From positions 1-46,777 of the forward strand of contig CAZKCH010000003.1 in NCBI GenBank assembly GCA_964551525.1: 46,777 bases of DNA, in the 5' to 3' direction. The translations under genes were made by a program, and so were the position numbers. The notes under the pieces were generated by a model. The model worked only from the letters and a program-made list of their open reading frames with translations. It had not been told where the DNA came from and did no database searches. The number at the start of each line of letters is the position of its first letter. The stretch's first letter is position 1. Source of the DNA: an uncultured Candidatus Saccharibacteria bacterium. Its GTDB lineage: Bacteria; Patescibacteriota; Minisyncoccia; Minisyncoccales; GWA2-46-15. Below, piece by piece: positions 6,174-31,884 of this stretch.

Positions 6174-7202
6174 ATGGTTAAATCGCTGACAAAAATTTTG
6201 ATTTTGATTCTATTGATCGCCTTGATCGGCGCCGGCGTTGTTTTTGTTTTACAGCCATTGATTATTGAAATTTTCCCGCAAAAACCAGAAGTCGTCCTGT
6301 CGACCACGGCCAAAATCATTTTTGTCGGCGACATCATGCTCGACCGGGGCGTGGAATACATGGTAAAAAAACAAGGCAATAATGATTTTGCTTTTCCTTT
6401 TGCTAAAATCGCCGCTAAGCTCCAGGCCGCTGATCTCGCTTTCGGCAATCTGGAAAGTCAGATTTCCGACCAAGGCCAGAACATCGGCTCAATTTATTCT
6501 TTCCGCGCCGATCCCGAAGCCATCGAAGGGTTAAAATCCGCTGGCTTTGACATTGTTTCTTTGGCCAATAATCATGCCTTTGATTATGGCCGGCTCGCCT
6601 TGCAAGACAGTATTAATCGCTTAATCACGGCTGGTATTTCTCCCATCGGCGGCGGCAATGAAAATCAGGCCTTTAGCCCGGCAATAAAAACTATTACTGG
6701 TTCGACTAGCGCGCCATCGCTACGGCTGGCTTTCTTCGCCTATACTGACCAAGGTCCAGAATCATGGCAAGCCACAAGCCAAATCGGCATCGCTCAAATC
6801 ACCACCGAAAATTTGGAAACGATTAAGGCCGACATTAAACTGGCAAAAGAACTGACCGACTTCGTCATTGTCTCTTTTCATATGGGCAATGAATACCAAA
6901 CCAAGCCGAGCGAAAACCAAATTCTCTTCTCCCAAGCATTAATCGATGCTGGCGCTGACCTGATCATTTGCCACCACAGCCATATCATCCAAGGCGAAGA
7001 ACAATATAAAAACGGCTATATTTTCTACGGCTTGGGCAACTTTGTTTTTGACCAGGGCTTTTCCCAAGAAACCCTGGAAGGAAAAATGGTGGAACTAACC
7101 CTTAAAAAAACCCGGGAAGATATGAAGCCTGAATCCGAAATCAAAACCCATACGGTGAAACTAAATCAATTCTTTCAGCCGGAAATCATTGCCGCGCCAT
7201 AG
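6174..7202 (+). CDS. CapA family (PGA_cap metallophosphatase-like) protein
   Basis: 342 aa with an N-terminal TM helix and motifs IIFVGDIMLDRGV, GNLESQIS, LANNHAFDYG and ICHHSH, typical of the CapA family. Confidence 0.8.
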   Translation: MVKSLTKILILILLIALIGAGVVFVLQPLIIEIFPQKPEVVLSTTAKIIFVGDIMLDRGVEYMVKKQGNNDFAFPFAKIAAKLQAADLAFGNLESQISDQGQNIGSIYSFRADPEAIEGLKSAGFDIVSLANNHAFDYGRLALQDSINRLITAGISPIGGGNENQAFSPAIKTITGSTSAPSLRLAFFAYTDQGPESWQATSQIGIAQITTENLETIKADIKLAKELTDFVIVSFHMGNEYQTKPSENQILFSQALIDAGADLIICHHSHIIQGEEQYKNGYIFYGLGNFVFDQGFSQETLEGKMVELTLKKTREDMKPESEIKTHTVKLNQFFQPEIIAAP

Positions 7203-7239
7203 TTGACCGCCTCGTTTTCTTTTGCTATGATGTCTTAAC

Positions 7240-7587
7240 ATGTGGAATCTGCTCCTAAGAATAGCGGGATCAATTGCCGGCCTTTGGCTTGCTGACAAAT
7301 ACGTCCCGGGCGTCCAGATATTGGGCGATTGGAAAATTTTGGTTCTGATCGGCACCTTTCTCGGCGGCGTTAATTTTTTCTTGAAACCGATTCTCGATGC
7401 CATCACCTTGCCGCTAAAACTCCTCACCCTCGGCCTGATCAGTTTAATTATTAATATGGGCTTGGTCTGGCTGATTGACATTGCTTTCCCGGAACTGGTC
7501 ATCTTAGGACTGCTCCCCTTGTTCTGGACCACTATTATTATCTGGCTGATAAACTTTATCCTTCAAAAGTGGCTGCCGAATAAATAA
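7240..7587 (+). CDS. Small 4-TM membrane protein, DUF360 / phage-holin-family-4-like
   Basis: 115 aa, four hydrophobic helices. The sequence pattern resembles the PF04020 family. Confidence 0.55.
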   Translation: MWNLLLRIAGSIAGLWLADKYVPGVQILGDWKILVLIGTFLGGVNFFLKPILDAITLPLKLLTLGLISLIINMGLVWLIDIAFPELVILGLLPLFWTTIIIWLINFILQKWLPNK

Positions 7588-12330: not shown

Positions 12331-12359
12331 TTGACAAGCTTTTTGGTTTCAGTTATTAT
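12331..12359 (+). promoter_or_regulatory. Sigma-70-type promoter candidate for the trpR/yerC-like gene
   Basis: TTGACA (12331-12336), a 17-nt spacer, then TATTAT (12354-12359). Confidence 0.5.
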
Positions 12360-12363
12360 ACAG

Positions 12364-12375
12364 CATACTAGTATG
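12364..12375. promoter_or_regulatory. Perfect 12-bp palindrome CATACTAGTATG (candidate TrpR-type operator)
   Basis: It lies 5 nt downstream of the -10 hexamer and so overlaps the expected transcription start. Its centre is ACTAGT, the hexamer repeated in E. coli trp operators. Confidence 0.4.
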
Positions 12376-12398
12376 TGGTATATAACACTAAACAGAGA

Positions 12399-12659
12399 AT
12401 GGTTATGAACTGGGAATTTGTCGATGAATTTATCGAAGCCCTGCTTCGCCTCAAAACCCATAAAGAGGCGCGGGATTTCCTCATGGGCATTTTAACGCCC
12501 AAGGAGCTACAAGAAATCCCCACCCGGTTGCAGATCGTCAAAATGCTCAAGCGTCGCCTCCCCCAGTACCGGATCGCGGAAAAACTGAAAGTCGGCATCG
12601 GCACCATCACCCGCGGCTCGAATGAAATAAAAAAAGGGCGATTTAAACAAGTGAAATAA
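12399..12659 (+). CDS. TrpR-family / YerC-YecD-like DNA-binding protein
   Basis: About 86 aa. The pattern (ARDFLMGILTPKELQEIPTRLQIVKML...YRIAEKLKVGIGTITRGSN) matches the Trp-repressor-like YerC/YecD family. The start is uncertain: ATG 12399 or 12405, or GTG 12375. Confidence 0.75.
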   Translation: MVMNWEFVDEFIEALLRLKTHKEARDFLMGILTPKELQEIPTRLQIVKMLKRRLPQYRIAEKLKVGIGTITRGSNEIKKGRFKQVK

Positions 12660-12660
12660 A

Positions 12661-12756
12661 ATGAAAAACCAATCAGATAAAAATTTATTAATAACAAATA
12701 GCTGGTGGTGGACTTTGCAGGCCTATCCGCAAAGTCCTGGTTTCGTGTTGACTTAA
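12661..12756 (+). CDS. Putative Trp leader peptide (31 aa, MKNQSDKNLLITNSWWWTLQAYPQSPGFVLT)
   Basis: The ATG lies 1 nt after the upstream TAA stop. There are three consecutive TGG codons at 12703-12711, followed by alternative hairpins and a terminator. Confidence 0.55.
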   Translation: MKNQSDKNLLITNSWWWTLQAYPQSPGFVLT

Positions 12757-12811
12757 TATATTTTTATATAGCCATCGAAACTTCTCTCGGACTGCGCGGG
12801 AGGAGTTTTTT
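12710..12811 (+). promoter_or_regulatory. Candidate transcription attenuator (segments 1-4 ending in an intrinsic terminator at 12780-12811)
   Basis: Pairing 1:2 is 12710-12718 with 12729-12737 (9 bp). Pairing 2:3 is 12733-12745 with 12776-12793 (5 + 7 bp). Pairing 3:4 is 12780-12789 with 12797-12806 (10 bp including 2 G-U), followed by TTTTTTGTTTG. Confidence 0.55.
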
Positions 12812-12910
12812 GTTTGTGTTGATGGTTAGATGTTTTTAGTAAAAATGCATAACCACCAGCACGAATGTCGTGCTGGCTTGTTCTTTCAAAATCAAACAAA
12901 AGGAGAAAAT

Positions 12911-14071
12911 ATGGAAGCCAAACATTTACTAAAAGACCATGCATATCAAAATATTCCGCTCACGTTTAAGGAGGCGTATCTTCTGGGGCTATACGCCCTT
13001 GAGGGATGTGCGGGTAATCAACTTGCACAGATTCAGAGTATTGCGGTTCTCTCTGCATTACACACTCATTCCACATACGCATGGCAGTGGAGCGAGGTGG
13101 CCGAATGTCATCACGGACACCGATTACCCCCAAATGCCGCCGAACAAATCGCAGGTGTCTGTGCCGCGGTGTTTCAAAAAGACATCGCAATATCCCAATT
13201 TGGGTTTCTTAAACCCAATATCCCCTATGCAATGGATAATTGCGGTATGGGAGGAGACCTCGTCGTGACGGCAAATGTAAGCACTATTGCTGCCCTCATC
13301 GCTTCGGCTGCAGGAATCCCAATGTGTAAACACGGATCGCCCGCGAATGCCGACAATGGCCACCACGGCAGTTCTGATTTTATCTCTCTGCTCGGTATCA
13401 GCACATACGCGACGAGAGATGAAGTCGAAAAGTGTGTTGAGGCGGAAAACTTCGGCTACACAGAAGCTTTAGATACTCGCTACAAACGGATTCACTTACA
13501 AACCCACGAAGTTGCAAGACTCCCGCACATGAACGACATCATCGGACCAATAACGAATCCGTTATCGGCACAACTCATGACACGGCGAGTGCTGGGCGTA
13601 AATCATCTAATCTCTCCGCGTATAGTTGCCGAGGCGTATCAAGTTCTCAATAAACACGGGGTGACAAATCTCCAACACGGCCTTTTCGTTCGCGGCTTCA
13701 CTGATAATTGTCGCTACGAAGGCGTGGATGAGGCTTCCATCTGCGGAGGAGGCACACAAGTTGCAGAGCTTCAAGATGGAACAATCCACGAATATCACCT
13801 CGATGCGCTCGATTTCGGACTCAGCTCTGTTTCACCTACGACAATATCTCCGCCGCACGGAATGAGCAAGGGCGATTTCTCTCTTAGAATCTTAAAAGGA
13901 GAAATCATCGGTCCCCCTCTTGAAATGGTTCTGGTCAACGCCGCACTTCTTTTTTATCTTGCTGAACGCTCACAAGATTTAAAAGAATGCTACGCTATGG
14001 CAAGGGTAGTACAAATGGCCGGTAGAGCATACGGAAAAGCTCTACGTCTTCGCCAAAGATTGCCCAAATAA
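12911..14071 (+). CDS. Divergent anthranilate phosphoribosyltransferase-like protein (TrpD / glycosyltransferase family 3)
   Basis: 386 aa from the ATG at 12911, which is preceded by AAAGGAG. TrpD-like blocks are DNCGMGGD, NVSTIAALIASAAG, KHGSP...GSSDFISLLGI, NDIIGPITNPL and GVDEASI...VAELQDG, with altered catalytic-loop residues. It is visibly more GC-rich than its neighbours. Confidence 0.72.
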   Translation: MEAKHLLKDHAYQNIPLTFKEAYLLGLYALEGCAGNQLAQIQSIAVLSALHTHSTYAWQWSEVAECHHGHRLPPNAAEQIAGVCAAVFQKDIAISQFGFLKPNIPYAMDNCGMGGDLVVTANVSTIAALIASAAGIPMCKHGSPANADNGHHGSSDFISLLGISTYATRDEVEKCVEAENFGYTEALDTRYKRIHLQTHEVARLPHMNDIIGPITNPLSAQLMTRRVLGVNHLISPRIVAEAYQVLNKHGVTNLQHGLFVRGFTDNCRYEGVDEASICGGGTQVAELQDGTIHEYHLDALDFGLSSVSPTTISPPHGMSKGDFSLRILKGEIIGPPLEMVLVNAALLFYLAERSQDLKECYAMARVVQMAGRAYGKALRLRQRLPK

Positions 14072-14076
14072 GTTAA

Positions 14077-14118
14077 GGGGCGATGATTTCTCTCATCGCC
14101 CCCACCTCTTTCCTTTTA
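14077..14118 (+). terminator. Terminator candidate after the trpD-like gene
   Basis: A 10-bp stem GGGGCGATGA / TCATCGCCCC with a 6-nt loop, 6 nt after the stop, followed by the pyrimidine/T-rich CACCTCTTTCCTTTT. Confidence 0.5.
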
Positions 14119-14153
14119 GGAATTGGAAATAAGTTTTATAATTCAATTGAGAT

Positions 14154-14972
14154 ATGATTTTAGCTAAAATTTTCAAGAAAAATAAAAACATAACAATAGG
14201 AGCGATTCATTTGCCGCCGCTTTTGGGCTACAAAAACTTCCCAGGTTTTAATGTTGCGCTTAAAAACGCTCTTGACGACCTAAAAGCATTTGAAAATGGT
14301 GGAGCAAATGGAATTATTTTCGAAAACAATTATGACATTCCGCACAAAATTTTTGTAGATGCTTCTATTATAAGCGCGATGACTTCTTTGGGGAAAAAAT
14401 TAAGAGAAGCCACGTATTTACCATTAGGCATAAGCGTCCTATGGAATGACTATCGTGCCGCATTATCAATAGCCAAAACGCTTAACTTGCAATTTATTCG
14501 AGTTCCGGTTTTTGTTGATAAAGTAAAAACAAGTTATGGGATCGTAAAAGGAGAACCTAAAAAAGTTATCGATTTTAGGAAATCAATTAATGCGGAAAAT
14601 ATAGCTATATTTACAGACATTCATGTTAAACATGCAAAATTATTATCCAAAAACGACTTGATAACTTCCGCAAAATTAGCTATCAAAAACAAATCTGACG
14701 CAGTAATTATCACCGGCAAATGGACCGGAGATGCTCCCGCCATAGAAAGAATAAAGTCCCTGAGAAAAAGTATCGGCACATTTCCAATTTTAGTCGGAAG
14801 CGGAACAGATAAAGATAATATCAAAACCTTATTTCAATTTGCCAATGGGGCAATAATAAGCACTTCTTTGAAAAATGGCTTAAGAAAAAATGGTGAGATC
14901 AACGTGAAACCCTACGCACAAAGGATAAACCCGAATAAAGTGAGGAGCTTAATTAATAGTATTATGGTATAA
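14154..14972 (+). CDS. BtpA/SgcQ family TIM-barrel protein
   Basis: 272 aa. The N-terminal IGAIHLPPLLGY motif and the overall pattern are typical of the BtpA family (PF03437). The gene is very AT-rich relative to its neighbours. Confidence 0.75.
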   Translation: MILAKIFKKNKNITIGAIHLPPLLGYKNFPGFNVALKNALDDLKAFENGGANGIIFENNYDIPHKIFVDASIISAMTSLGKKLREATYLPLGISVLWNDYRAALSIAKTLNLQFIRVPVFVDKVKTSYGIVKGEPKKVIDFRKSINAENIAIFTDIHVKHAKLLSKNDLITSAKLAIKNKSDAVIITGKWTGDAPAIERIKSLRKSIGTFPILVGSGTDKDNIKTLFQFANGAIISTSLKNGLRKNGEINVKPYAQRINPNKVRSLINSIMV

Positions 14973-14992
14973 TAAAAAATTAAGATACTATT

Positions 14993-15967
14993 ATGCGCAT
15001 ATTTTCGGGAATACAACCGACGGGCGCCTTGCACATCGGCAACTACCTGGGCGCCATCAGGCAATTTGTTGAACTTCAGGAAAAAAATGAGTGTGTTTTT
15101 AGCATTGTCGATTTGCACGCCATGACCGCGCCGTATAAAGCCGAGGAAATGCCCCAAAATGTCTTGGATGCCGCCGTCGCCTATATGGCCTCGGGCATTG
15201 ATCCGGAAAAATCAATCCTTTTTGTCCAATCGCAGGTGCCGGAACACACGGAATTGGCCTGGATTTTGAATTGCGTCACCCCGGCCGGGGATTTGCTGCG
15301 CATGACCCAGTACAAAGAGAAAGCCAAACAATTCAAAGACAATATCAATGCCGGGCTGATGAATTATCCCGTTTTAATGGCGGCTGACATTCTGATTTAC
15401 AAAACAGAAATGGTGCCGGTGGGCCACGACCAGAGCCAGCACGTGGAATTGGCGAGAACGATTGCCAGAAAATTCAACCAGAGATTCGGCCAAACCTTTC
15501 CTGAACCGAAACTGAAACTACCGGAAGCAGGCGCGAGAATTATGTCTCTTTCCGACCCAAAAAAGAAAATGTCAAAATCAGTCCCTTCTTCCTGCCTTTA
15601 CCTTTTTGACGAACCGGAAACAATCAAAAAGAAAATTATGTCCGCGGTTACCGATCTGGGCAAAGAAATAAAATTTGATCCGGACAAAAAGCCCGGCATT
15701 GCCAATTTGCTGGTGATTTACAGCTCTTTTTCGGGCAAAACCATTAAAGAATTGGAAAAAAAGTTTAAGGGTTCCGGCTATGGCAAATTCAAAGAATCAT
15801 TGGCTAATCTTTTGATTGAAAAATTAGAGCCATTAAGGCGCAAAAGAAAAGAATTGCTCTCGCGCGAGGTTTATCTTAAAGAAATCTTAAACCAAGGAGC
15901 GAAAAGAGCCCACTCCATTGCCGAGGAAACAATGAAAGAAGTCCGCAAAAAAACCGGCCTGACTTAG
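14993..15967 (+). CDS. trpS: Tryptophan--tRNA ligase
   Basis: 324 aa with a class I HIGH-type motif (GALHIGNYLG), KMSKS and TrpRS-like sequence throughout. Confidence 0.95.
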   Translation: MRIFSGIQPTGALHIGNYLGAIRQFVELQEKNECVFSIVDLHAMTAPYKAEEMPQNVLDAAVAYMASGIDPEKSILFVQSQVPEHTELAWILNCVTPAGDLLRMTQYKEKAKQFKDNINAGLMNYPVLMAADILIYKTEMVPVGHDQSQHVELARTIARKFNQRFGQTFPEPKLKLPEAGARIMSLSDPKKKMSKSVPSSCLYLFDEPETIKKKIMSAVTDLGKEIKFDPDKKPGIANLLVIYSSFSGKTIKELEKKFKGSGYGKFKESLANLLIEKLEPLRRKRKELLSREVYLKEILNQGAKRAHSIAEETMKEVRKKTGLT

Positions 15968-17912: not shown

Positions 17913-18395
17913 ATGAATTTAAATAAGATATTTTTATTGGGCCGGGTGGCGAGCGACCCGGAAATGAGAACCACCAATGCCGGCCAGCCGGTCTGCTCTT
18001 TCCGCATGGTCACCAATCGGAATTACACTGACAGCGCCGGGACAAAACAGGAAAAAGCCGAGTTTCACAGCATTGTTCTCTGGCGCCGCTTAGCCGAGAT
18101 TGCCGGCCAATACCTGACCAAGGGCTCATTAGTGCTGATTGAGGGCCGGATCGAAACAAGAATGTGGCAAGACAATACCGGTACTAAAAAATATCGCACC
18201 GAAGTAATTGGCGAACGGCTCCAATTAGGGCCAAAATCAGCCAATGCCAATAGACCAACAGCGGGAACAGCCAGCCAGCACGAAGAGCCAATCGGCGCCG
18301 CGGTTGAAGAAGAAAAACCAGCCACTCCGGAAGAAATCCCCATTATCGAGGAAGACCAAAGCGATGAAATTAGCGTTAAGGACATCCCCTTCTAA
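17913..18395 (+). CDS. ssb: Single-stranded DNA-binding protein
   Basis: 160 aa with an OB-fold N-terminus (MNLNKIFLLGRVASDPEMR...) and an acidic C-terminal tail ending DIPF. Confidence 0.95.
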   Translation: MNLNKIFLLGRVASDPEMRTTNAGQPVCSFRMVTNRNYTDSAGTKQEKAEFHSIVLWRRLAEIAGQYLTKGSLVLIEGRIETRMWQDNTGTKKYRTEVIGERLQLGPKSANANRPTAGTASQHEEPIGAAVEEEKPATPEEIPIIEEDQSDEISVKDIPF

Positions 18396-22235: not shown

Positions 22236-22817
22236 TTAAGATTTAATAAATTCCATGATCTCGGAATTTCTAATAAGAATAGTGCGGTCAGTGGTAAACG
22301 TTAATCCTTTATTTGGCGTTGCTTCAAACCCAAGATAAATACGCTCAATATTGTTTCTTCTCAACTCAGCAATTGCCGGCTGCAAATCAGAATCCGAACT
22401 CCCGATAATCGCTGTTTTCAGCTCATTATTATGAGCTAAGGTGATCAAATCAACGGCAATTTTTACATCGACGCCCTTCTCTTTAAAAGTTAGGGTTTCG
22501 TGGCCCATAAAGCATTTTTCGAGGTGCCCTCTGACTCTTCCGGCAATAATAATTTCGAAACCTTGTCGCTCTAAATGTGTTTTTAATTTTCTTTGTTTTT
22601 CTATGAGATCTTCTGATTTTTTAATCGTTTCCGGATGTTTAATTAATCTGCCCAAATAGAATAATTTTCTATCTATTTCCACGCCAGCTAGCACCTTGCT
22701 AATAAGACCTTTGAAATCATAAGTAGAAAAGTCGATCTCTTTTTTCTTTCCGGGATCTATCACAGATCTAATTTTATCAATAAAATTGCGTCCGTCTATA
22801 AAAAGTATGGTTTTCAT
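22236..22817 (-). CDS. NYN-domain (LabA-like) protein
   Basis: 193 aa. The N-terminal ILFIDGRNF and the later SSDSDLQPAI acidic motifs are typical of NYN/LabA PIN-like nucleases. Confidence 0.75.
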   Translation of the reverse strand: MKTILFIDGRNFIDKIRSVIDPGKKKEIDFSTYDFKGLISKVLAGVEIDRKLFYLGRLIKHPETIKKSEDLIEKQRKLKTHLERQGFEIIIAGRVRGHLEKCFMGHETLTFKEKGVDVKIAVDLITLAHNNELKTAIIGSSDSDLQPAIAELRRNNIERIYLGFEATPNKGLTFTTDRTILIRNSEIMEFIKS

Positions 22818-22918: not shown

Positions 22919-25900
22919 TTACTTTTTGAAGCCGGTGCCGGCCGGAATTAATTTTCCAATAATGACATTTTCCTTCAAGCCCTGGAGCCGGTCTTCTTTG
23001 CCGCAAATGGCAGCCGAGATTAAAATGCGCGAGGTCTCAATAAAGGAAGCGGCAGACAAGAAACTATCGGTCGCCAAAGCCACCTTGGAAATGCCCATCA
23101 AAACCGGCAAAGCGACAATTTCTTTTTTGCCCTCTTTCTTCAGTTTTTTATTCTCTTCGGCAATGCGGGTATGGCTGATAATTTCCCCGGCAATAAACTG
23201 GCTGTCGCCCGAGTCCTTGACTTTACAGCGGGAAAACATCTGCCTGACAATCACTTCCAAATGTTTGTCGTGAATCGAAGCGCCCTGGGAAGCATAAATG
23301 CGCTGGACCTCAGTAATAATATGTTTTTGCGTCAGCCCGGGCCCGACGGCCTTAAACAGCTCTTTCAAATCGGCATTGCCTTCGGACAATGACTGGCCGG
23401 CCACGATCGTATCCCCGGCTTTAATTAAGATCTCTCTGCCCGCCGGCAACTCATATTCAATCACGTCATTATTTTTTGTCTTCTTTGACCTTGCTTTTTT
23501 ATCCGCCGAGCTTTCTCCTTCCGGCTTCACTTTAACAATGAGATTTTCCACTGACAAAACCTGGCCGTTAACCTGGGAAATCACTGCTTTGCCCAATGGC
23601 ACTCTTGATTCAAAAATTTCTTCCACCCGAGGCAAACCCATGGTGATATCAGCGCCGGCAATGCCGCCCAAATGAAACGTTTTCATCGTCAGCTGGGTGC
23701 CTGGTTCGCCAATGGCCTGGGCGGCAATAATGCCCACCGCCTCGCCCGTATCCACGATTTTATTAGTACCCAAGCTCCAGCCATAACAATGCTGGCAAAC
23801 GCCTCTTAAAAGTTTGCAGGTCAGGGGCGAACGGCAATGAACCGCGGCAATATTGTTTTTCACGATTTCTTTGCCTTTTTCCCAATCAATAAATTCGCCT
23901 TTTTTAACAATCAGCTTTTTTTCTTTTCCCACCTCGGCCTGGCTATAAACATCTTCCAAACAAATCCGGCCGATAATTTTCAAAAGAAAGTTCTGGCCGA
24001 TGTCTTCCGCTTCTTTCCTCACAAAAACCATGCCTTTATTATCGCCGCAATCCTTTTCCTCAACAATAACTTCATGGCTGACATCAGCCAAGCGCCGCGT
24101 CAGATAACCGGCCGTCGAAGTCCGCAAAGCCGTGTCGGCCGTGCCTTTTCTCGCCCCGTGAGTAGAAAGAAAGTATTCCAAAACATCAAGGCCTTCTTTA
24201 TAAGAATGTTTGATCGGTAATTCAATGATCCGGCCGACCGGGTTAATCACCAGTCCTTTCATACCCGCCATCTGCACCGGCTGGGCCCAAGAGCCGCGGG
24301 AGCCGGAATCAATAATGGCAAACACCGGCCCGTCCAAGGGCAAGGTTTTGGGCACCAGTTTTTCTATTTCTGATTTTGTTTTTTGCCAAATCTCAATGGA
24401 ACGCTGATATTTTTCATCGCGGGAAAGCAAACCCTTTAAAAAATGGCTGTCTAATTGAGCGATTTCTTTTTCCGCCGCTTCAATTAATTTCGGTTTTTCT
24501 TCCGGCACTTTCAAATCATCCATGCCCCAGCTGATGCCCGAACGGGTGGCGCCGTCAAAACCAACGTTTTTGATGCTGTCCAGAATCGGCGGCGCTTTCT
24601 CAATCGTGTATTTATCAATCACTTCTCTCACCAATTCTTCCAGTTTTTTGGAATTCATTTCCTTATTTTGGAAAGGAAAATCCTCGGGCAAGGCCTCGTT
24701 GAAAATCAACCGGCCCACGCTGGTGGAAATAAACCGCCCTGATTCGTCTTTTATCTTTCCCGACTGATTCTGAATTTTTATTTCTGCCTTGATATCAATT
24801 TCTCCCATTTCATAAGATAACTCCGCTTCTTCGGGCGCTCCAAAAACCCGGCCTTCGCCCTTAGCGCCCGGTTTAAGTTTCATCAACCAATAAGCGCCAA
24901 GAACGATTTCCTGGGTCGGACTGACAATGGGCAAACCGGTGGCCGGCTTGAGCAAGTTTTTCGATGAGAGCATAATGTCCCTCGCTTCTGCCTGCGCCTC
25001 TTCTGATAAGGGCAAATGAACCGCCATCTGGTCGCCGTCAAAATCAGCATTGAACGCCCGGCAAACAAGAGGATGAAGCCGGATAGCATTACCTTCAATC
25101 AGAATCGGCTTAAAGGCCTGAATGCCCAGCCGATGCAAAGTCGGCGCCCGATTTAAAAGCACGTGTTTGCCTTGAACCACTTCCTCCAAGATCGCCCAGA
25201 TATCATCTGTTTCCTGCTCAATCAAGCGGGAAGCGCCCCTCACATTAAAAGCCAATTCTTTGTCCAAAATTCTTTTAATGACAAAGGGTTTAAAAAGCTC
25301 CAAGGCCATTTTCTTAGGAATGCCGACCTGGTGCAAAGCCAAATCCGGGCCAACCACAATCACTGACCGGCCGGAATAATCAACTCTTTTGCCGAGCAAA
25401 TTTTGGCGGAAGCGGCCCTGTTTGCCTTTCAAAATATCTGCCAATGATTTCAAAAGCCGCCGGCCGCCCGTAGTCGCCTTAGTCATCGTCCCTTTTCTCA
25501 TCGTGTTATCAATCAAAGCGTCAACCGCTTCCTGCAACATTCTTTTTTCATTGCGGACAATCACTTCCGGCGCCCCGATCTCGAGCAAATATTTTAAACG
25601 ATTGTTCCTGTTGATAACGCGGCGGTAAAGATCATTCAAATCAGAAGAAGCGTAGCGGCCGCCGTCCAATTGGACCATGGGCCTCAAGTCGGGCGGCAGA
25701 ATCGGCAAAACCGTCACGAACATCCATTCCGGCCTGATGCCGGCCCTTTCCATACCCTGGAAAAGCTTTAGCTGTCTCAAGATTTTTCTTTTTTGCAAAG
25801 GCGTGGCTTCTTCCAACCCTATTTTTAATTCATGGATCCGCTTTTTTAAATCAACTTCGCTGAAAATCTTTCTCAACACTTCTCCGCCCGTGCCCGCTTC

Positions 25901-26590
25901 AAAACACTGGCCGTATTTCAAAGACAGATCGAAGTAATCGGCTTCTGATAAAATCCGCAAAACCTTGATGCCCTGAACATCTTCTTTGGCCTTGTCCCGC
26001 GCCTCTTTCAAATCATGGTCTTCTTTCTTGTCTCCCTTCTTTTCTTCTTTTTTCTCTTCTTTATTCTTTCCTTTTCCCTCTTTTTCACCTGTTTTATGCC
26101 TCGTGGTTTGCGTTTTCAGTTTCATCTGGTATTCCTTCTCGATCTGCTCCAAAAGATTCTTTTTCGCTTCTTCATTCACCTTAACGACAATATAAGCGTT
26201 GAAATAAATGACTTTTTCCAAATGGATCATGGGCAAATCCAAAATCTGACCCATTCTTGACGGCACGCCCCGCAAAAACCAGATGTGGGAGACCGGCGTG
26301 GCTAATTTGATATGGCCCATTCTTTCCCGCCGCACTGCCGCCTTGGTCACTTCCACGCCGCACTTGTCGCAGATAATACCTTTGTGCCTGATGCCGCGGT
26401 ATTTGCCGCAATAACATTCATAATCCTTTTCCGGCCCAAAAATCTTTTCGTCAAAAAGCCCTTCTTTTTCCGAGCGCTGGGTGCGATAATTGATTGTTTC
26501 CGGCTTCGTTACCTCGCCATGAGACCATGACAAAATCTCCTCGGGCGAGGCCAATTTGATTCTGATCGCTTCGATGTCGAAAACCCGCAT
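22919..26590 (-). CDS. rpoC: DNA-directed RNA polymerase subunit beta-prime
   Basis: 1223 aa with an N-terminal Zn finger (CYCGKYRG...CDKCGVEV) and the catalytic NADFDGDQM motif. It sits directly downstream of rpoB. Confidence 0.98.
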   Translation of the reverse strand: MRVFDIEAIRIKLASPEEILSWSHGEVTKPETINYRTQRSEKEGLFDEKIFGPEKDYECYCGKYRGIRHKGIICDKCGVEVTKAAVRRERMGHIKLATPVSHIWFLRGVPSRMGQILDLPMIHLEKVIYFNAYIVVKVNEEAKKNLLEQIEKEYQMKLKTQTTRHKTGEKEGKGKNKEEKKEEKKGDKKEDHDLKEARDKAKEDVQGIKVLRILSEADYFDLSLKYGQCFEAGTGGEVLRKIFSEVDLKKRIHELKIGLEEATPLQKRKILRQLKLFQGMERAGIRPEWMFVTVLPILPPDLRPMVQLDGGRYASSDLNDLYRRVINRNNRLKYLLEIGAPEVIVRNEKRMLQEAVDALIDNTMRKGTMTKATTGGRRLLKSLADILKGKQGRFRQNLLGKRVDYSGRSVIVVGPDLALHQVGIPKKMALELFKPFVIKRILDKELAFNVRGASRLIEQETDDIWAILEEVVQGKHVLLNRAPTLHRLGIQAFKPILIEGNAIRLHPLVCRAFNADFDGDQMAVHLPLSEEAQAEARDIMLSSKNLLKPATGLPIVSPTQEIVLGAYWLMKLKPGAKGEGRVFGAPEEAELSYEMGEIDIKAEIKIQNQSGKIKDESGRFISTSVGRLIFNEALPEDFPFQNKEMNSKKLEELVREVIDKYTIEKAPPILDSIKNVGFDGATRSGISWGMDDLKVPEEKPKLIEAAEKEIAQLDSHFLKGLLSRDEKYQRSIEIWQKTKSEIEKLVPKTLPLDGPVFAIIDSGSRGSWAQPVQMAGMKGLVINPVGRIIELPIKHSYKEGLDVLEYFLSTHGARKGTADTALRTSTAGYLTRRLADVSHEVIVEEKDCGDNKGMVFVRKEAEDIGQNFLLKIIGRICLEDVYSQAEVGKEKKLIVKKGEFIDWEKGKEIVKNNIAAVHCRSPLTCKLLRGVCQHCYGWSLGTNKIVDTGEAVGIIAAQAIGEPGTQLTMKTFHLGGIAGADITMGLPRVEEIFESRVPLGKAVISQVNGQVLSVENLIVKVKPEGESSADKKARSKKTKNNDVIEYELPAGREILIKAGDTIVAGQSLSEGNADLKELFKAVGPGLTQKHIITEVQRIYASQGASIHDKHLEVIVRQMFSRCKVKDSGDSQFIAGEIISHTRIAEENKKLKKEGKKEIVALPVLMGISKVALATDSFLSAASFIETSRILISAAICGKEDRLQGLKENVIIGKLIPAGTGFKK

Positions 26591-26619: not shown

Positions 26620-29600
26620 TTAATCTTTCGTTTGATCTTCTCTTTCTTCTTTAATTTTCTCCTTGACTTCCACGGCCAAACCCAATGATTTCAATTCGGC
26701 CACCAATAAATTGAAAGAAGCGGGGATGCTGGGATTTCTGATCGGCTCGCCTTTCAAGATTGATTCATAGCTGGCGGCCCGGCCCGGCACGTCGTCTGAT
26801 TTAATGGTTAAAATTTCCTGCAAAGTATGGGCGGCGCCATAACCCTCGAGCGCCCAAACCTCCATTTCGCCGAAGCGCTGGCCGCCGAATTGCGATTTGC
26901 CGCCCAAGGGCTGCTGGGTAATCAAAGAATAAGGGCCAATGGAACGCATGTGGATTTTATCCTCCACCATATGGATCAATTGCATCATATAGATTTCCCC
27001 GACCGTTACCCGATCCGGAAAAGCCAAGCCGGTCCGGCCGTCAAAAACCCTTAATTTGCCGTCTTCGGGATAGCCGGCTTTTTTCAATTCCTCTTTAATA
27101 TCTGCTTCCACTGCCCCCAGTAAAGCCGGGGTGACGGCCCGGTAACCGAGTTTCTTGGCCGCTAATCCCAAATGGGTTTCCAAAATCTGGCCTAAGTTCA
27201 TTCTCGAAGCCACGCTCAAAGGATTCAAAACAATATCCACGGGCGTACCGTCTTCCAAAAACGGCATTTCTTCTTCGGGCAAAACCGTGGAAATCACGCC
27301 TTTATTGCCGTGACGGCCGGCTAATTTGTCCCCGGCTTGAATTTTCCTCAACTCTGCCATTTCTACCTGAATCCTTTTTAATATTCCCGGCTCCAATTGA
27401 GCGCCCTTTTCCCTTTCCCAGGTTCTGACATTAATGACCCGGCCCCGCTTGCCGTATTCCAAAAGCAAAGAAGTGTCCTTAACTTCCCTGGCCCGTTCGC
27501 CGAAAATGGCGCGCAAAAGCCGTTCTTCCGGAGTCAAATCCGTTTCACCCTTGGGCGAAATCTTGCCCACTAAAATATCATGGGAGCCGACTTCGGCGCC
27601 GATTCTAACAATGCCCTCTGAGTCCAAGTCCTTTAGTTTTTCCTCGCTGACATTAGGAATATCTCCGGTGGTCATTTCCGGACCCAGTTTTGTTTCTCTG
27701 ATATCGCAAAAAAAGTTTTCCAAATGGATAGAGGCGTAAACATCTTCTTTAATTATCCTTTCTGACAGGATAATCGCGTCTTCAAAATTCCTGCCCCGCC
27801 AAGGCACAAAAGCAACCAAAATATTTCTGCCCAAAGCCAGCCAGCCGTTTTCAATGGCGGCGCCGTCAGTCAAGACCTGGCCGGTTTTTACTTTCTCCCC
27901 TTTTTTAACAATGGGCCGCTGGTGAAAACAAGTATATTGATTTGTCCTCACAAAAGTCCTTAATAAGTATTCGGTGGAAACCCTTGTTTTCTGGTTTTGA
28001 GTTTTAATATGGCTGCCATCCACTTCCGTCACCACTCCCTCGTCTTTGGCAATTAAAACCTGGCCCGAATCCTCTGCCACTCTCGGCTCCACGCCGGTGC
28101 AAACCAAGGGCGCTTCCGGATTCAAAAGCGGCACGGCTTGGCGTTGCATATTTGATCCCATCAAAGCGCGGTTGGCATCATCGTTTTGCAAAAAAGGAAT
28201 CATGGCCGTGCCGGCGGAAATCGCTTGTTTGGAGGAAACGTCAATGAAATCAATTTTTTCTTTTTCGATCTGGCCCGGTTCGCCGTGAATCCTCGCCGTT
28301 ACTTTAGCCGGAATAATTTTCCCGTCTTTATCAAGCGGCGTGCCGGCGTGGGCAATGCTATACCGCTCTTCTTCATAAGCATTTAAATAATGGACTTGGG
28401 AAGTAACTTTGGTTTTATCTACTTTAAAGTAAGGTGTTTCTAAAAATCCTAGAGAATTAATCCGAGCAAAGCAAGCCATGTGGGAAATTAAACCCACATT
28501 CTGGCCCTCGGGCGTCTGGATCGGGCAAATGCGGCCATAATGCGACGGTTGAACGTCCCTCACTTCCAGCCCGGCTCTTTCCCGAGCTAAACCGCCCGGC
28601 CCGGTGGCGGACAAACGCCGCTTGTGTTCCAACTCGGCCAAAGGATTTTCATTGTCCATAAACTGGCACAATTGGCTCGAAGTGAAAAATTCTTTGATTA
28701 CCGCCATTAACGGCCTCGGATTAATCAATTGCGCCGGCATCATCATCCCTTCTTCAATAGTTGACATTCTGTCTTTGATAATTCTTTCCATGCGTAAAAG
28801 CCCGACTCGCATCCGGTTCTGCAAAACCTCGGCTGAGGTCCTGACGCGCCGGTTGCCTAAATGATCAATCGGATCCGCCACTGCTCCGGGCGTATTATTG
28901 AGACGGATGACTTCACGAATAACCGCCACAATATCTTCCGGCTTTAAAACCCGATCTTTGATGGTGATTTCTTCTTCTTTCTTGGCTTTCTGGTCAAATC
29001 TTTGACTCACCCGCCAACGGCCCACTTTTGACAAATCATACCTTTCAAAATTGAAAAACATGCTTTCAATCAGTTCCCGAGCCGTATCCGGCGTGACTAA
29101 ATCGCCTGGTCTCAATCGTTCGTAAATTTCCACCAAGGCCTCGGCTTGATTGTGAGAAGGATCTTTTTTAATTGTCTCCTCAATGTATTTAATATCCGGA
29201 TCATTATCAACGGTCTGGAAAAGCTCTTTTAGGGCCTGGTCATTGGCAATGCCAAAGGCGCGCAAAATGGTGGTCGCCGCCACTTTTCTTTTGCGGTCGA
29301 TTTTAACGCCGATAAAACCCGAGGCATCGCTTTCCATTTCCAGCCAAGCGCCGCGATTGGGAATAATTTTCGCGCCAAAACATTTTCGTCCGCCCAATTG
29401 CTGGCTGGTGAAAAACACGCCCGGGGAACGGATGAGCTGAGAAATCGCCACCCGCTCCACGCCATTGACAATAAAAGTACCTCGCTCGGTCATCAAAGGG
29501 AAATCGGCTAAAAAGACCTCCTGCTCTTTGGTTTCTTTGGTCCGGATATTGACTAAGCGCGCCTTGACCCGCAAAGACGCTTCGTAAGAACCGTTATCGA

Positions 29601-29820
29601 GTTTGGCTTCCAAATCATCTTTATATTTCGGCTCCTCGATTTTAAAATCCGAAAACCAGAGTTCAAATTCTTTTTTGGTGTAATCGCGGATGGGCGACAC
29701 CTCGCTGAAAAGTTCTTTAATGCCGTTTTTCAAAAGCCACTGCCAGCTATCTTTCTGGAGAGCGCAAAGGTAGGGAAGGCGGAAAGAAACCTTTGATTTA
29801 GAGAATGATTTTACCTGCAT
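26620..29820 (-). CDS. rpoB: DNA-directed RNA polymerase subunit beta
   Basis: 1066 aa with conserved RpoB blocks throughout (for example GRHGNKGV and FGEMEVWALEGYGAA). Confidence 0.98.
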   Translation of the reverse strand: MQVKSFSKSKVSFRLPYLCALQKDSWQWLLKNGIKELFSEVSPIRDYTKKEFELWFSDFKIEEPKYKDDLEAKLDNGSYEASLRVKARLVNIRTKETKEQEVFLADFPLMTERGTFIVNGVERVAISQLIRSPGVFFTSQQLGGRKCFGAKIIPNRGAWLEMESDASGFIGVKIDRKRKVAATTILRAFGIANDQALKELFQTVDNDPDIKYIEETIKKDPSHNQAEALVEIYERLRPGDLVTPDTARELIESMFFNFERYDLSKVGRWRVSQRFDQKAKKEEEITIKDRVLKPEDIVAVIREVIRLNNTPGAVADPIDHLGNRRVRTSAEVLQNRMRVGLLRMERIIKDRMSTIEEGMMMPAQLINPRPLMAVIKEFFTSSQLCQFMDNENPLAELEHKRRLSATGPGGLARERAGLEVRDVQPSHYGRICPIQTPEGQNVGLISHMACFARINSLGFLETPYFKVDKTKVTSQVHYLNAYEEERYSIAHAGTPLDKDGKIIPAKVTARIHGEPGQIEKEKIDFIDVSSKQAISAGTAMIPFLQNDDANRALMGSNMQRQAVPLLNPEAPLVCTGVEPRVAEDSGQVLIAKDEGVVTEVDGSHIKTQNQKTRVSTEYLLRTFVRTNQYTCFHQRPIVKKGEKVKTGQVLTDGAAIENGWLALGRNILVAFVPWRGRNFEDAIILSERIIKEDVYASIHLENFFCDIRETKLGPEMTTGDIPNVSEEKLKDLDSEGIVRIGAEVGSHDILVGKISPKGETDLTPEERLLRAIFGERAREVKDTSLLLEYGKRGRVINVRTWEREKGAQLEPGILKRIQVEMAELRKIQAGDKLAGRHGNKGVISTVLPEEEMPFLEDGTPVDIVLNPLSVASRMNLGQILETHLGLAAKKLGYRAVTPALLGAVEADIKEELKKAGYPEDGKLRVFDGRTGLAFPDRVTVGEIYMMQLIHMVEDKIHMRSIGPYSLITQQPLGGKSQFGGQRFGEMEVWALEGYGAAHTLQEILTIKSDDVPGRAASYESILKGEPIRNPSIPASFNLLVAELKSLGLAVEVKEKIKEEREDQTKD

Positions 29821-29997: not shown

Positions 29998-31049
29998 TGT
30001 ACTGGTTCATGACATATGATACACTTGCCACCACATGAAAGGCAGGTACAATGGTTGCCGTATGACTATCTACGGCACAGTAATTCCCCGAGCCCGGTCA
30101 ATCGCCTCCTGAGCTTGGCGGACAGAATCGTTAACCGCTAAGGCGAGATATAAGATGAAGATATTGGATTGGCATCGGATTCACGGAAACAATGCCTCTC
30201 TGCTGCAAGACATTTTGGTCTGGGAAGAATGACAATCCGGAGATGGTTAAAAAGGATTAAGACAATCGGCATCGTCGGTCTTAACGAATATTCCCGTAAG
30301 CCCAAAAGATTAAGGCAACCGACCACGAGTTGGGAGATAGTCAGTCAAACCGTTGAATTAAGACAACAATATCCGGCCTGGTCAAAGTATAAGCTGCAGA
30401 TTCTTTTAGAAAGACGGGGGATAAAAACATCGGTTAGCACGGTGGGACGAATTCTAAAAAGAAAGAGTTTGATCAACCGCAAGATTTCGCAAAAGAGGAG
30501 GAAAGCGGCTTTAAGGCCCAAAGCCAGGTTTCCCAAGGGGTTGGTCATCTCTCGCCCCGGAGACATGATCCAGATAGACGTTAAGCATATCATGCTTGTG
30601 GGCGGACATAGGTTTTACCAGTTCACTGCCATTGACGTCCTGACTAAGTACCGGATCCTAAGGATCTATCCGTCGGAATCTTCCCGTAATGGCGCCGACT
30701 TCCTGAAAGAATGCCTGAAGGAATTTGAAAGAATGACCAAGGAATATGGATTACCTCACTACTTCATTTACCCAAGGAATCCAAAACAGAATACTTACGT
30801 GGAAATCTCTCACGGAGCGGATAAACGGGAATTCTACCAGTAAGGCAATGTTTGTTCTTTCCTGGAAACCATGCGAGAAAGAATCAAGGGAAGACAGCTC
30901 GTCTGGAACACGGTCAGACCCCACCAGGCGCTTAACTATCTGACGCCTACTGAATACCTGGCCAGACTCCAAACTATCCCGCTTCCTACTCGAGATTTCA
31001 TCACATTACAAACTTAACGAGGTGTATCAGATGTATCTGAACCTGGACA
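29998..31049 (+). mobile_element. Decayed IS481-like (rve/DDE) insertion sequence, 1052 bp
   Basis: The imperfect terminal inverted repeats start with TGT: 29998-30024 against the reverse complement of 31022-31049, about 22 of 28 positions matching. The element is flanked by CCCCC on both sides (29993-29997 and 31050-31054). It encloses a disrupted transposase reading frame. Confidence 0.7.
30155..31017 (+). pseudogene. Disrupted rve-type (IS481-like) transposase
   Basis: The ATG at 30155 opens MKILDWHRIHGNN in a different frame from the HTH and catalytic part (30169 onward). The segment expected between ECLKEF and YGLPHYFIYPRNPKQN, normally holding the second catalytic Asp (TDNG-type block), is missing. 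An in-frame TAA at 30841-30843 precedes the conserved tail WNTVRPHQALNYLTPTEY, which ends at 31017. Confidence 0.7.
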
Positions 31050-31065: not shown

Positions 31066-31105
31066 AAATAGCACCTCCAAAGATCGGATCTTTGTGAGTG
31101 CTATT
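31066..31105. repeat. Palindromic repeat family 1, copy a
   Basis: AAATAGCACCTCCAAAGATCGGATCTTTGTGAGTGCTATT forms a two-tier hairpin (ATAGCAC/GTGCTAT and CAAAGATC/GATCTTTG). It overlaps the stop codon of the Y1 gene. Confidence 0.8.
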
Positions 31106-31832
31106 CTGCTTCTATGATCGGGTCACTCAAGCTAACCGCATTTCTTCGATTATTCAAATATTGTTTTATAATTTTTAAACAATTATTCCCGCCGCCGATC
31201 ATCTCTATAAAAAGTTTTCTTTCTGTTACTGATGGGAAGTTTTTCTTTCCTAAATAATCTTGAAAGCTTGACCATTTATATCCCTTCAAAAAGCTAATCG
31301 CTTTTTTAAAATCCCTTATTCCGGTCTCTTTCCATTTCGGAAAAATAATTGCCAATGAGTTGCTATGGATATAAGAAAATACAATCATTAATTGTTCGTC
31401 GTTCTTAATGTGAACCGCCCTAAACTTTCCGGCAAAGAGATGCCCGCTTCTCTTTCGCCGCTTGTTAAAATATGTGGCATACCCAATCCCAAGTTTTTGG
31501 ATAAATTTACTTATGCCAGCTGATTTTAATTGCCGAACTAAAAGATGGATATGATTCGGCATTAAGCAAAAAGCCAAAACGTCTACTAACTTTTTACGTT
31601 CGAGTAACGGGATATTTTTCGGGACTAAATTCTTATTAATTTTGATTAGATTTTTAAATCGTTCTCGCTCTTTTCTCCGGTCACGGATAATAACCGGCGC
31701 TGACGTATTAAATTCAAATAATGAAAAGATCCCGCGATAATAATCCTCTTTATCTAAAAATATCCTCCGTTGTTCTACGCCTCTGAGAATAACATGATAA
31801 ATTTCTCCTTCGACTAAGAGTGGCCGATTCAT
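31101..31832 (-). CDS. HUH/Y1 tyrosine transposase-like protein (IS200/RAYT family), copy 1
   Basis: 243 aa from MNRPLL. It carries the N-terminal YHVILRG..RRIF motif, the HUH motif PNHIHLL and the Tyr motif YIHSN. The ATG at 31859 in the ORF track lies inside the flanking repeat and was not used. Confidence 0.8.
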   Translation of the reverse strand: MNRPLLVEGEIYHVILRGVEQRRIFLDKEDYYRGIFSLFEFNTSAPVIIRDRRKERERFKNLIKINKNLVPKNIPLLERKKLVDVLAFCLMPNHIHLLVRQLKSAGISKFIQKLGIGYATYFNKRRKRSGHLFAGKFRAVHIKNDEQLMIVFSYIHSNSLAIIFPKWKETGIRDFKKAISFLKGYKWSSFQDYLGKKNFPSVTERKLFIEMIGGGNNCLKIIKQYLNNRRNAVSLSDPIIEAE

Positions 31833-31844
31833 ACTTTTACATTG

Positions 31845-31884
31845 AAATAGCACCTCCAAAGATCGGATTTTTGTGAGTGCTATT
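31845..31884. repeat. Palindromic repeat family 1, copy b
   Basis: It is identical to copy a at 39 of 40 nt. The single C-to-T change (31869) converts a G-C pair into G-T, so the stem is preserved. It lies 13 nt upstream of the Y1 gene start. Confidence 0.8.

Follow-up and report, generated by a model that had tools for sequence, protein, structure and literature searches.

Anthranilate phosphoribosyltransferase, TrpD, is represented by the equivalog model TIGR01245 and by solved structures (PDB 1ZYK, 1KGZ, 9UCW and an M. tuberculosis series). We analyzed a stretch of 46,777 nucleotides from an uncultured bacterium (GenBank assembly GCA_964551525.1, contig CAZKCH010000003.1), the whole of which we call the window, and which encodes a TrpD homolog that we call TrpDl. 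TrpDl and TrpD share a two-domain fold over the full length (template modeling (TM) score about 0.8), the phosphoribosyl pyrophosphate (PRPP) and Mg motifs GxGGD, NxST, KHG, GSxD and DE, and a similar Trp-responsive control. They differ in context: TrpDl was never found in a trp operon, and its partners are BtpA, phosphatases and kinases. The regulatory devices at the locus are of known kinds, while the pair of TrpDl and BtpA is an uncharacterized, widely conserved variant of known families whose function is likely new.

Other known systems resemble parts of the locus. The BtpA protein of the window is a clear member of the BtpA/SgcQ family (PF03437, TIGR00259), a family without an established enzymatic function. 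TrpD2/YbiB and the nucleoside and AMP phosphorylases have the alpha/beta Glycos_transf_3 domain in common with TrpDl, but TrpDl matches none of their profiles significantly. TrpD2 has lost the PRPP motifs, whereas TrpDl has kept them. Control of the E. coli trp type is shared in the form of an ACTAGT-core palindrome, a leader open reading frame (ORF) with tandem Trp codons, 1:2, 2:3 and 3:4 hairpins and a terminator with a U-tract. Unlike in E. coli, the repressor gene is inside the regulated transcript, 1 nt before the leader, the leader has three Trp codons instead of two, an overlapping pair of hairpins follows the terminator, and the regulated gene encodes a single TrpD-like enzyme. Relatives of the locus share with the Trp T-box (RF00230) the T-box sequence GGUGGNACCGCG, a terminator and antiterminator, a stem IIA/B region and a UGG specifier. 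Their T-box differs in that stem I is short and the codon is located in a 3'-side bulge and followed by G; the window has a leader peptide instead.

TrpDl is clearly not the ordinary TrpD of its lineage, because a canonical Patescibacteria TrpD, encoded in a trp operon (locus L084; L numbers denote the loci compared), scores 340.9 bits on TIGR01245, which passes, and is 24% identical to TrpDl. TrpDl itself scores 146.4 bits, below the cut-off of 199, and its profile matches are to TrpD models only. Among solved structures it aligns only to TrpDs, with E-values of 1e-25 or weaker. Its predicted structure (mean predicted local distance difference test (pLDDT) 91.8) retrieves TrpD throughout the top 50 Foldseek matches, at full length, with TM scores of 0.77-0.84 and identities of 19-26%. 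These matches include the TrpD variant structures N138A and R193A/L, and there is no TrpD2 structure among them. The YbiB/TrpD2 model NF006005 does not match TrpDl at E<0.01, and models of nucleoside and AMP phosphorylases give no significant match; Glycos_transf_3 is found, and the PYNP_C domain is not. The N-terminal domain does not match Glycos_trans_3N.

In a search of 1.84 billion representative proteins, 25 clusters match TrpDl at 159-389 bits, after which scores drop to 116 bits or less, the range of ordinary TrpDs. A neighbor-joining tree unites the 25 clusters with the archaeal and divergent members in one clade, and canonical Patescibacteria TrpD falls outside it. Because this tree has no bootstrap and the branch to the clade is short, the clade leans chiefly on the score gap and on signature residues. 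KHGS occurs in 23 of the 25 members, while KHGN is found outside the clade, and GMGGD is also a signature. Judged by these sequence features, TrpDl represents a separate clade of TrpD-fold proteins.

The residues that characterize PRPP and Mg binding (CGMGGD, NVST, KHG, GSSD and DE) do not vary among 30 relatives of TrpDl, and the archaeal members likewise have them. The initial annotation had called attention to altered catalytic loops, and alignments to solved TrpDs and to the canonical Patescibacteria TrpD bear this out: GTGGD becomes GMGGD, and KHGN(R/K)..GSAD becomes KHGSPANADNGHHGSSD, which includes an insertion of two residues. The insertion is not present in the archaeal and divergent members of the family. 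The Asn of KHGN is replaced by Ser, and the canonical Arg/Lys-Thr-x-Phe-Asn stretch is replaced by Pro-His-Met-Asn-Asp (PHMND). From work in M. tuberculosis and S. solfataricus, we take this Asn and the Arg of the RTxFN stretch to be the contacts to anthranilate. A metal site made of conserved Cys residues was considered and dropped; the archaeal members share only C111 and C139.

TrpDl with BtpA is, on comparison of many genomes, a conserved module of Patescibacteria and DPANN and not the oddity of one genome. Homologs of TrpDl with 65-83% identity are numerous in metagenomes, and a scan of species-representative genomes gave 45 TrpDl loci, which belong to Patescibacteria and to three DPANN archaea (47% identity for the archaea). 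We counted neighbors in 48 TrpDl-related loci, of which 42 have BtpA directly beside TrpDl or close to it. In a TrpDl subfamily with only 28-35% identity to the window protein, BtpA or the same accessory genes still come next. Both proteins are more conserved than tryptophanyl-tRNA synthetase (TrpRS) in the same loci; for example, the values for TrpDl and BtpA in L029 are 61% and 63%, versus 42% for TrpRS. Parcubacteria are reported to share about 47-59% amino acid identity genome-wide, and one pair reaches 70% (PMC5220378).

TrpDl is an orphan in its locus, as had been proposed: no canonical trp gene is located within 6 kb on either side in any of the 61 TrpDl loci used for this question. Nor is trpE, G, C, F, B or A present among the 26 ORFs of the window that we scanned with profiles, in agreement with the earlier reading. 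The scan excluded the ORFs at 7161-7532, 17913-18395, 22919-26590, 26620-29820 and 40356-46628.

The features of the locus are given in Table 1. On the forward strand, from 12331 to 15967, the order is promoter, palindrome, TrpR-like gene, leader ORF, structured leader, TrpDl, hairpin, BtpA and trpS, and ORFs and profile matches agree with the gene order and positions originally assigned. TrpDl probably starts at the ATG at 12911, which is behind a ribosome-binding site (AAGGAG, 12900-05), rather than at 12830.

Table 1. Features of the TrpDl locus, in window coordinates
Feature	Position	Strand	Details
Sigma-70-type promoter	12331-12359	+	-35 TTGACA (12331-36), 17-nt spacer, -10 TATTAT (12354-59); 11/12 consensus
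Probable TrpR operator	12364-12375		Perfect palindrome CATACTAGTATG, over transcription start
TrpR-like repressor gene	12375-12659	+	GTG 12375 or ATG 12399; Pfam Trp_repressor 1.4e-20, 73.6 bits (cut-off 27)
Leader ORF	12661-12756	+	MKNQSDKNLLITNSWWWTLQAYPQSPGFVLT, then stop; 31 codons; TGG three times in a row at 12703-12711
Attenuator regions 1 and 2	12710-12737	+	GGACTTTGCAGG (12710-21) pairs with CCGCAAAGTCC (12727-37); minimum-free-energy folds
Attenuator terminator (regions 3:4)	12777-12819	+	13-bp stem 12777-12809, then TTGTTTGTGT; terminator scan
Second conserved RNA element	12818-12886	+	Hairpin A, 12818-28 with 12850-60; hairpin B, 12856-76; GTTCTTT, 12880-86
TrpDl, TrpD-fold phosphoribosyltransferase homolog	12911-14071	+	386 aa; Pfam Glycos_transf_3 1.2e-33
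GC-rich hairpin with weak U-tract	14076-14103	+	Just past TrpDl stop; probable (partial) intrinsic terminator
-10-like TATAAT	14137-14142	+	11 nt before BtpA ATG
BtpA/SgcQ-family TIM-barrel protein	14154-14972	+	272 aa; Pfam BtpA 4e-59; TIGR00259 205.1 bits (cut-off 153.4)
Extended -10 TGGTATAAT	14964-14972	+	Overlaps BtpA stop; probable trpS promoter
trpS, bacterial-type tryptophanyl-tRNA synthetase	14993-15967	+	TIGR00233 358.4 bits (cut-off 176.75, passes)

Of 42 TrpDl genes, 10 have a short ORF with tandem Trp codons in the 300 nt before them, compared to 3 of the 356 other genes of these loci, which served as controls (Fisher p 1.4e-8). The 250-nt leader in the window is strongly structured (-74.9 kcal/mol, z -3.9) and has two terminator-like hairpins. 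Region 1 of the predicted attenuator begins within the last Trp codon, and its pairing with region 2 is conserved in L051, L005, L006 and L028. Region 3 (GGACTGCGCGG, 12789-99), in the 5' arm and loop of the terminator, has region 2 as its alternative partner, and this pairing would form an antiterminator. The 2:3 duplex of the window reaches -18.2 kcal/mol (z -3.1 versus shuffles). Among nine leaders, eight have a 2:3 duplex that significantly outperforms shuffled sequences, and compensatory changes are seen in L001 (GCUAAGU/ACUUAGC) and L019 (UGCGGGGC/GCCCCGCA). With a ribosome footprint masked on the Trp codons, the minimum-free-energy fold flips from terminator to antiterminator in four of the nine leaders (window, L006, L008 and L019). 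Since this applies to only four leaders, we did not accept equilibrium folding as proof of a switch, and used the duplex statistics and covariation instead.

No Rfam family matches the window leader, and no T-box was detected in the window. We therefore rejected a known riboswitch as the identity of this leader and classify it as a leader-peptide attenuator. Apparent leaders with two Trp codons in archaeal loci were also rejected; the TGGTGG in L049 is the start of TrpDl (ATGGTGGTC), which leaves no sign of attenuation in archaea.

A second conserved RNA element follows the attenuator. The arms of its hairpin B are CCAGCACG and CGTGCTGG, and this hairpin overlaps hairpin A. In the window, as in the leaders of L005, L006, L007, L008, L001 and L028, the 3' arm CCACCAGC shares bases with the 5' arm of the smaller hairpin (CAGCACG..CGUGCUG). 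The arms covary in L008 and L007. GUUCUUU is located about 20 nt before the ribosome-binding site, and this motif is also present in T-box-type leaders. L007 retains the second element, although its leader ORF is lost. The element might act as another terminator switch, as a processing site or as a site where a protein binds.

The repressor-like gene in front of the leader is a third connection to Trp. The encoded protein scores below the TrpR cut-off of TIGR01321 (53.8 versus 67.25) and below the YerC/YecD cut-off (37.2 versus 42.2). The perfect palindrome over the transcription start is a probable TrpR operator, and its ACTAGT core matches the E. coli trp operator. The window, L007, L040 (twice) and L041 have a palindrome of the form (G/A)TACTAGTA(C/T) behind a promoter that is next to a TrpR-like gene; the operator-like palindrome in L007, L040 (two copies, one of them before a leader with two Trp codons) and L041 is GTACTAGTAC. 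Leaders of relatives are also preceded by similar TTGACA promoters. In the window, the leader ATG begins 1 base past the trpR-like stop codon (TAA A ATG, 12657-12663), so the leader and the repressor gene may be translationally coupled; leaders of relatives have their own promoter.

A T-box occurs in place of the leader peptide in 24 TrpDl loci, plus L050 and L052, and precedes the first gene of the TrpDl operon. RF00230 matches L003 with E 1.9e-10 and 51.9 bits, which is short of the gathering threshold (93). The 3' bulge of stem I, g(u/c)UGGg, contains the Trp specifier, and the UGG bulge is found in 22-23 of the 24 loci. Close relatives of the window protein (79-81% identical) carry either a leader peptide or a T-box. 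Altogether, three independent mechanisms of Trp control account for roughly 35 of the 45 species. The presence of three unrelated Trp sensors at one gene is the strongest evidence that TrpDl acts in the tryptophan economy.

We used the stem-II sequence of these T-boxes to scan genomes and found at least 120 loci, nearly all in Patescibacteria, most with UGG in the stem-I bulge. The genes 3' of these T-boxes include TrpDl operons, TrpB2, ScyB-like, YbdK-like ligase and radical-S-adenosylmethionine (radical-SAM) genes, and a trp operon. The last of these (L084 742-7683, JBAZCA010000001.1) is a complete canonical operon, TrpE-G-D-C-F-B-A, behind the same kind of Trp T-box. A TrpB-like pyridoxal phosphate (PLP) enzyme (TrpB2; NF009057, 732 bits) also follows a Trp T-box, often with TrpRS next to it. 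Since the same T-box class drives the canonical trp operon, TrpB2 with TrpRS and a Trp-dehydrogenase-like gene, we place TrpDl in a Trp-supply regulon. TrpB2 is near TrpDl in none of the 61 TrpDl loci.

Some members of this regulon deserve separate mention. Examples of TrpB2 loci with T-boxes are L114, L099, L118 and L142. The ScyB-like gene under a Trp T-box encodes a 354-aa dehydrogenase of the Glu/Leu/Phe/Val type that scores 305 bits to tryptophan dehydrogenase ScyB, which is below the cut-off. It is the first ORF after the T-box in L116, the third in L075 and L154, and directly upstream of TrpDl, in the same operon, in L145 (2526-3587). Among the T-box loci found, the commonest first gene encodes a 268-aa YbdK/GCS2-like carboxylate-amine ligase (at least 20 loci: L115, L152, L126 and 17 more). 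Its 3' partner encodes an AstE/AspA-like deacylase or a gamma-glutamylcyclotransferase-like protein, and these ligase and deacylase genes may constitute a route that frees Trp from conjugates.

Downstream of TrpDl, the locus was initially annotated with a hairpin terminator at 14077-14102, and we found this hairpin, extended by one nucleotide at each end. In most of 30 related loci (about 24 by our count), a comparable GC hairpin lies behind the TrpDl stop codon, usually with a U-tract; the U-tract in the window is weaker. BtpA genes have no Shine-Dalgarno-like sequence (0 of 41), whereas TrpDl genes have strong ones. A -10-like hexamer is located at most 22 nt from the BtpA ATG in 23 of 41 cases, and a TATAAT-like box often lies 5-12 nt before the ATG. 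This pattern suggests that BtpA has its own promoter and a leaderless or near-leaderless mRNA. The ATG of trpS, at 14993, also has no Shine-Dalgarno sequence before it.

By these signals, the locus appears to consist of three transcription units, in which BtpA and trpS have their own promoters. The idea that the locus is a single Trp-sensing unit therefore does not hold, given the conserved terminator after TrpDl, the -10 box and missing Shine-Dalgarno sequences of BtpA and the extended -10 of trpS. Trp control is demonstrable only for TrpDl, because the conserved terminator follows it and the other two genes appear to be separately promoted. Transcriptional read-through may nonetheless reach BtpA.

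The BtpA protein scores 184.8 bits on NF045918, the equivalog for the cyanobacterial BtpA of photosystem I biogenesis, below its cut-off of 400. Its predicted structure is an eight-stranded alpha/beta barrel (pLDDT 88), and a sequence search of the PDB gives no match. We refrained from naming a BtpA reaction from its fold, as the structural matches are too unspecific.

Accessory genes occur in subsets of the TrpDl loci. They encode HAD phosphatases, a short PfkB-like kinase, a 300-aa protein with no Pfam match, a Cof-type HAD protein, a GNAT protein and an M20 deacylase. In some genomes, an EamA transporter and a low-molecular-weight (LMW) phosphatase are encoded directly upstream of TrpDl. 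Other neighbors are a PRK09065-type amidotransferase, an IU-nucleoside hydrolase, a group-II PLP decarboxylase, a radical-SAM/SPASM protein and a NUDIX protein. The glutamine amidotransferase upstream of TrpDl in L032, L038, L044, L050 and L052 was considered as a possible TrpG and rejected, as it scores 155 bits on PRK09065 versus 34 bits on TrpG/PabA. A TrpRS gene is present within 6 kb of TrpDl in 25 of the 48 loci, including both halophilic archaeal loci (L048 and L049). Two separate TrpRS genes flank the TrpDl module in L025, L026, L035 and L043, which come from very small genomes; TIGR00233 was passed where this was tested.

One neighbor is a type II chorismate mutase domain fused to a SAM methyltransferase. 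It is encoded beside TrpRS near TrpDl in 10-11 bacterial loci (L006, L008, L017, L026, L028, L032, L036, L042, L044, L047, L052). A CM_2-domain protein is also encoded directly upstream of TrpDl in a Woesearchaeota contig (L046 5-721). The fusion is odd in organisms that are thought to have no shikimate pathway.

We propose the following model. One promoter (12331-59) would drive the trpR-like gene, the leader and TrpDl. When charged tRNA-Trp is scarce, a ribosome would stall on the three Trp codons and cover region 1. Region 2 would then pair with region 3, the terminator at 12777-12819 would not form, and TrpDl would be transcribed. In sister genomes, a T-box that senses tRNA-Trp through UGG would do the same job, and the terminator after TrpDl would close the regulated unit. 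TrpDl would be a catalytically competent, PRPP-dependent phosphoribosyltransferase that descended from TrpD. Because its acceptor pocket is rebuilt (KHGN to KHGS, and PHMND), the molecule that it ribosylates is probably an aromatic acceptor different from anthranilate. The resulting ribotide would be processed by the BtpA barrel, and HAD or LMW phosphatases, PfkB-like kinases and the EamA transporter of the same operon would take part in many genomes. The purpose would most likely be to raise the Trp supply from a scavenged precursor. We regard this model, of an enzyme switched on by Trp starvation whose product, made from an acceptor other than anthranilate, is passed to BtpA for Trp supply, as probable by a small measure. 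Of the initial readings, the evidence agrees best with that of a TrpD paralog with a different substrate and retained Trp-responsive regulation: the clade is distinct, the Asn of KHGN and the Arg-Thr are replaced, the PRPP motifs are intact and Trp control is present. That part of the initial annotation and the orphan status of TrpDl stand, while the single regulated unit, the oddity confined to one genome and the mosaic acquisition do not.

Several observations weigh against this model. The position aligned with the Arg is a Lys in the canonical TrpD of L084, and the Arg substitution is therefore suggestive, not decisive. With region 1 masked, the terminator remains the minimum-free-energy fold in five of the nine leaders, so an attenuator of this type would have to depend on co-transcriptional kinetics. 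BtpA is seemingly transcribed separately, and only its adjacency suggests a functional link to TrpDl. Moreover, the Foldseek matches of BtpA are generic phosphate-binding barrels (CutC, ThiE, PdxJ, PriA, RPE, TrpA, TrpF and HisF; TM 0.5-0.7). In a search of sequencing runs, the sequence occurs in DNA metagenomes and in none of the RNA runs. Our literature search found nothing on BtpA together with TrpD, on the function of the BtpA family, on TrpD in the candidate phyla radiation (CPR) or on a measured activity of any TrpDl family member.

TrpDl might instead be a divergent but ordinary anthranilate phosphoribosyltransferase, with TrpF/C/A and TrpB or TrpB2 encoded elsewhere in the genome. The closest matches of TrpDl are indeed all TrpD, whether in sequence, profile or fold, its PRPP and Mg motifs are intact, and it is regulated like a trp operon, with the T-box class seen in L084. 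Patescibacteria also have TrpB2 under the same control, and the Lys in the L084 enzyme indicates that the Arg is not absolutely required. Yet a score of 146 bits, below the equivalog cut-off, contrasts with 341 bits for the canonical Patescibacteria TrpD, and in the clade the PHMND block is invariant and the Ser of KHGS nearly so (23 of 25 members). TrpDl is never beside trpC/F/A/B or TrpB2 in the 61 loci, its partners (phosphatases, kinases, nucleoside hydrolase and BtpA) do not suit canonical Trp chemistry, and Parcubacteria are reported to lack most amino acid biosynthesis (PMC5220378). We consider this explanation unlikely. A TrpD2/YbiB-like nucleic-acid binder without catalysis, or else a regulatory partner of TrpRS, would be compatible with the frequent linkage to TrpRS and with an unusually high conservation, above that of TrpRS in the same loci, which could reflect binding to a macromolecule. 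The PRPP- and Mg-binding motifs are all invariant, though, NF006005 gives no match at E<0.01 and no TrpD2 is among the top 50 folds, which makes such a role extremely improbable.

The remaining explanations take their cue from the neighboring genes. In one, a natural inhibitor of TrpRS or a Trp analog lowers the charging of tRNA-Trp and thereby induces TrpDl, which ribosylates the compound; kinases, an acetyltransferase, an exporter and a second TrpRS would be helpers in this detoxification or resistance. Some operons do encode a GNAT acetyltransferase, the 300-aa ORF, which might be kinase-like, a PfkB-like kinase, the EamA transporter and phosphatases, and two TrpRS genes flank the module in the four loci mentioned. 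A parallel exists in Streptomyces, where auxiliary, antibiotic-resistant TrpRS genes are under Trp-codon attenuators. However, each accessory gene is present in at most a quarter of the loci, the T-box regulon otherwise consists of Trp-supply genes, and the core pair is kept in tiny genomes, in many Patescibacteria lineages and in DPANN, at 55-83% identity, for which a housekeeping role is a better fit. This makes detoxification quite improbable. TrpDl and BtpA could also be a salvage pair for nucleotides or pentoses, similar to the AMP phosphorylase route, with Trp control as an incidental feature or a general starvation cue. The AMP phosphorylase route spans Patescibacteria and DPANN, in parallel to TrpDl, TrpD is in the fold class of the nucleoside and AMP phosphorylases, and BtpA resembles ribulose-phosphate enzymes in being a phosphate-binding barrel. 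The partner genes of some loci encode an IU-nucleoside hydrolase, HAD nucleotidase-like proteins, a PfkB kinase and NUDIX. But TrpDl does not significantly match phosphorylase models, although canonical TrpD matches them weakly, and has no PYNP_C domain. The three sensors in front of it are Trp-specific, and TrpRS, TrpR and a Trp-dehydrogenase-like gene are among its neighbors. Salvage of this kind is, in our estimate, very improbable.

Returning to the model of a Trp-supply enzyme with a different acceptor, a bolder version of it is conceivable, though rather unlikely. TrpDl and BtpA could be the core of an undescribed route to Trp that does without tryptophan synthase in Patescibacteria and DPANN. 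TrpDl would join a scavenged indole- or aniline-type compound to PRPP, and BtpA, joined in some lineages by phosphatases and kinases, would rearrange or cleave the ribosyl phosphate chain to give an indole keto-acid. A ScyB-like Trp dehydrogenase or an aminotransferase would then convert the keto-acid into Trp. If true, supposed strict Trp auxotrophs could make Trp from the waste of their hosts.

The composition of the genes had been interpreted as a sign of mosaic acquisition, with a GC-rich trpD-like gene and an AT-rich BtpA gene. TrpDl is not GC-rich: its GC content is 0.477, versus a mean of 0.445 +/- 0.044 for genes of the window (z +0.7), and that at third codon positions (GC3) is 0.44 (z -0.7). 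Only the value at first positions (GC1) is high, because of the amino acid composition. BtpA is indeed AT-rich (GC 0.347; GC3 0.32, z -2.3). Its GC3 is below that of its neighbors in 31 of 35 related loci, and below that of TrpDl in nearly all, so AT-richness is a trait of this gene family and not a mark of recent acquisition here. The argument for mosaic acquisition thus fails.

The window has a GC content of 45% and carries genes for RNase J, GroEL, RecA, FtsK, DprA and ribosomal proteins S6 and S18. The nearest relatives of its proteins are annotated as Patescibacteria, Parcubacteria or Paceibacterota. Low GC3 groups BtpA with two IS200-like transposases and an NYN gene (0.33-0.36). An rve-integrase fragment, two IS200-like Y1 transposase genes and an NYN-domain gene are located at 30169-30843, 31101-31859, 39553-40269 and 22236-22817. 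An ORF of 2090 aa on the reverse strand (40356-46628) has a low GC3 (0.36) and a high GC1.

Tryptophan is the rarest and most costly amino acid. The usual description of Patescibacteria (CPR) and DPANN is that they cannot synthesize most amino acids (PMC5220378). In such organisms, a two-gene module that many candidate phyla keep at 55-83% identity, and that three different sensors wire to the charging of tRNA-Trp, argues strongly, on comparative grounds, for an undescribed enzyme step connected with Trp supply. The Trp T-box before TrpB2 implies indole salvage in organisms usually called amino acid auxotrophs. More broadly, the T-boxes outline a Trp regulon for Patescibacteria that comprises a trp operon, TrpB2 with TrpRS, the Trp-dehydrogenase-like gene, the ligase and deacylase genes, and TrpDl. 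For enzymology, TrpDl would offer a TrpD-fold enzyme with a rebuilt acceptor pocket, and the module provides the first clear metabolic context for the BtpA/SgcQ family, to which no function has been assigned.

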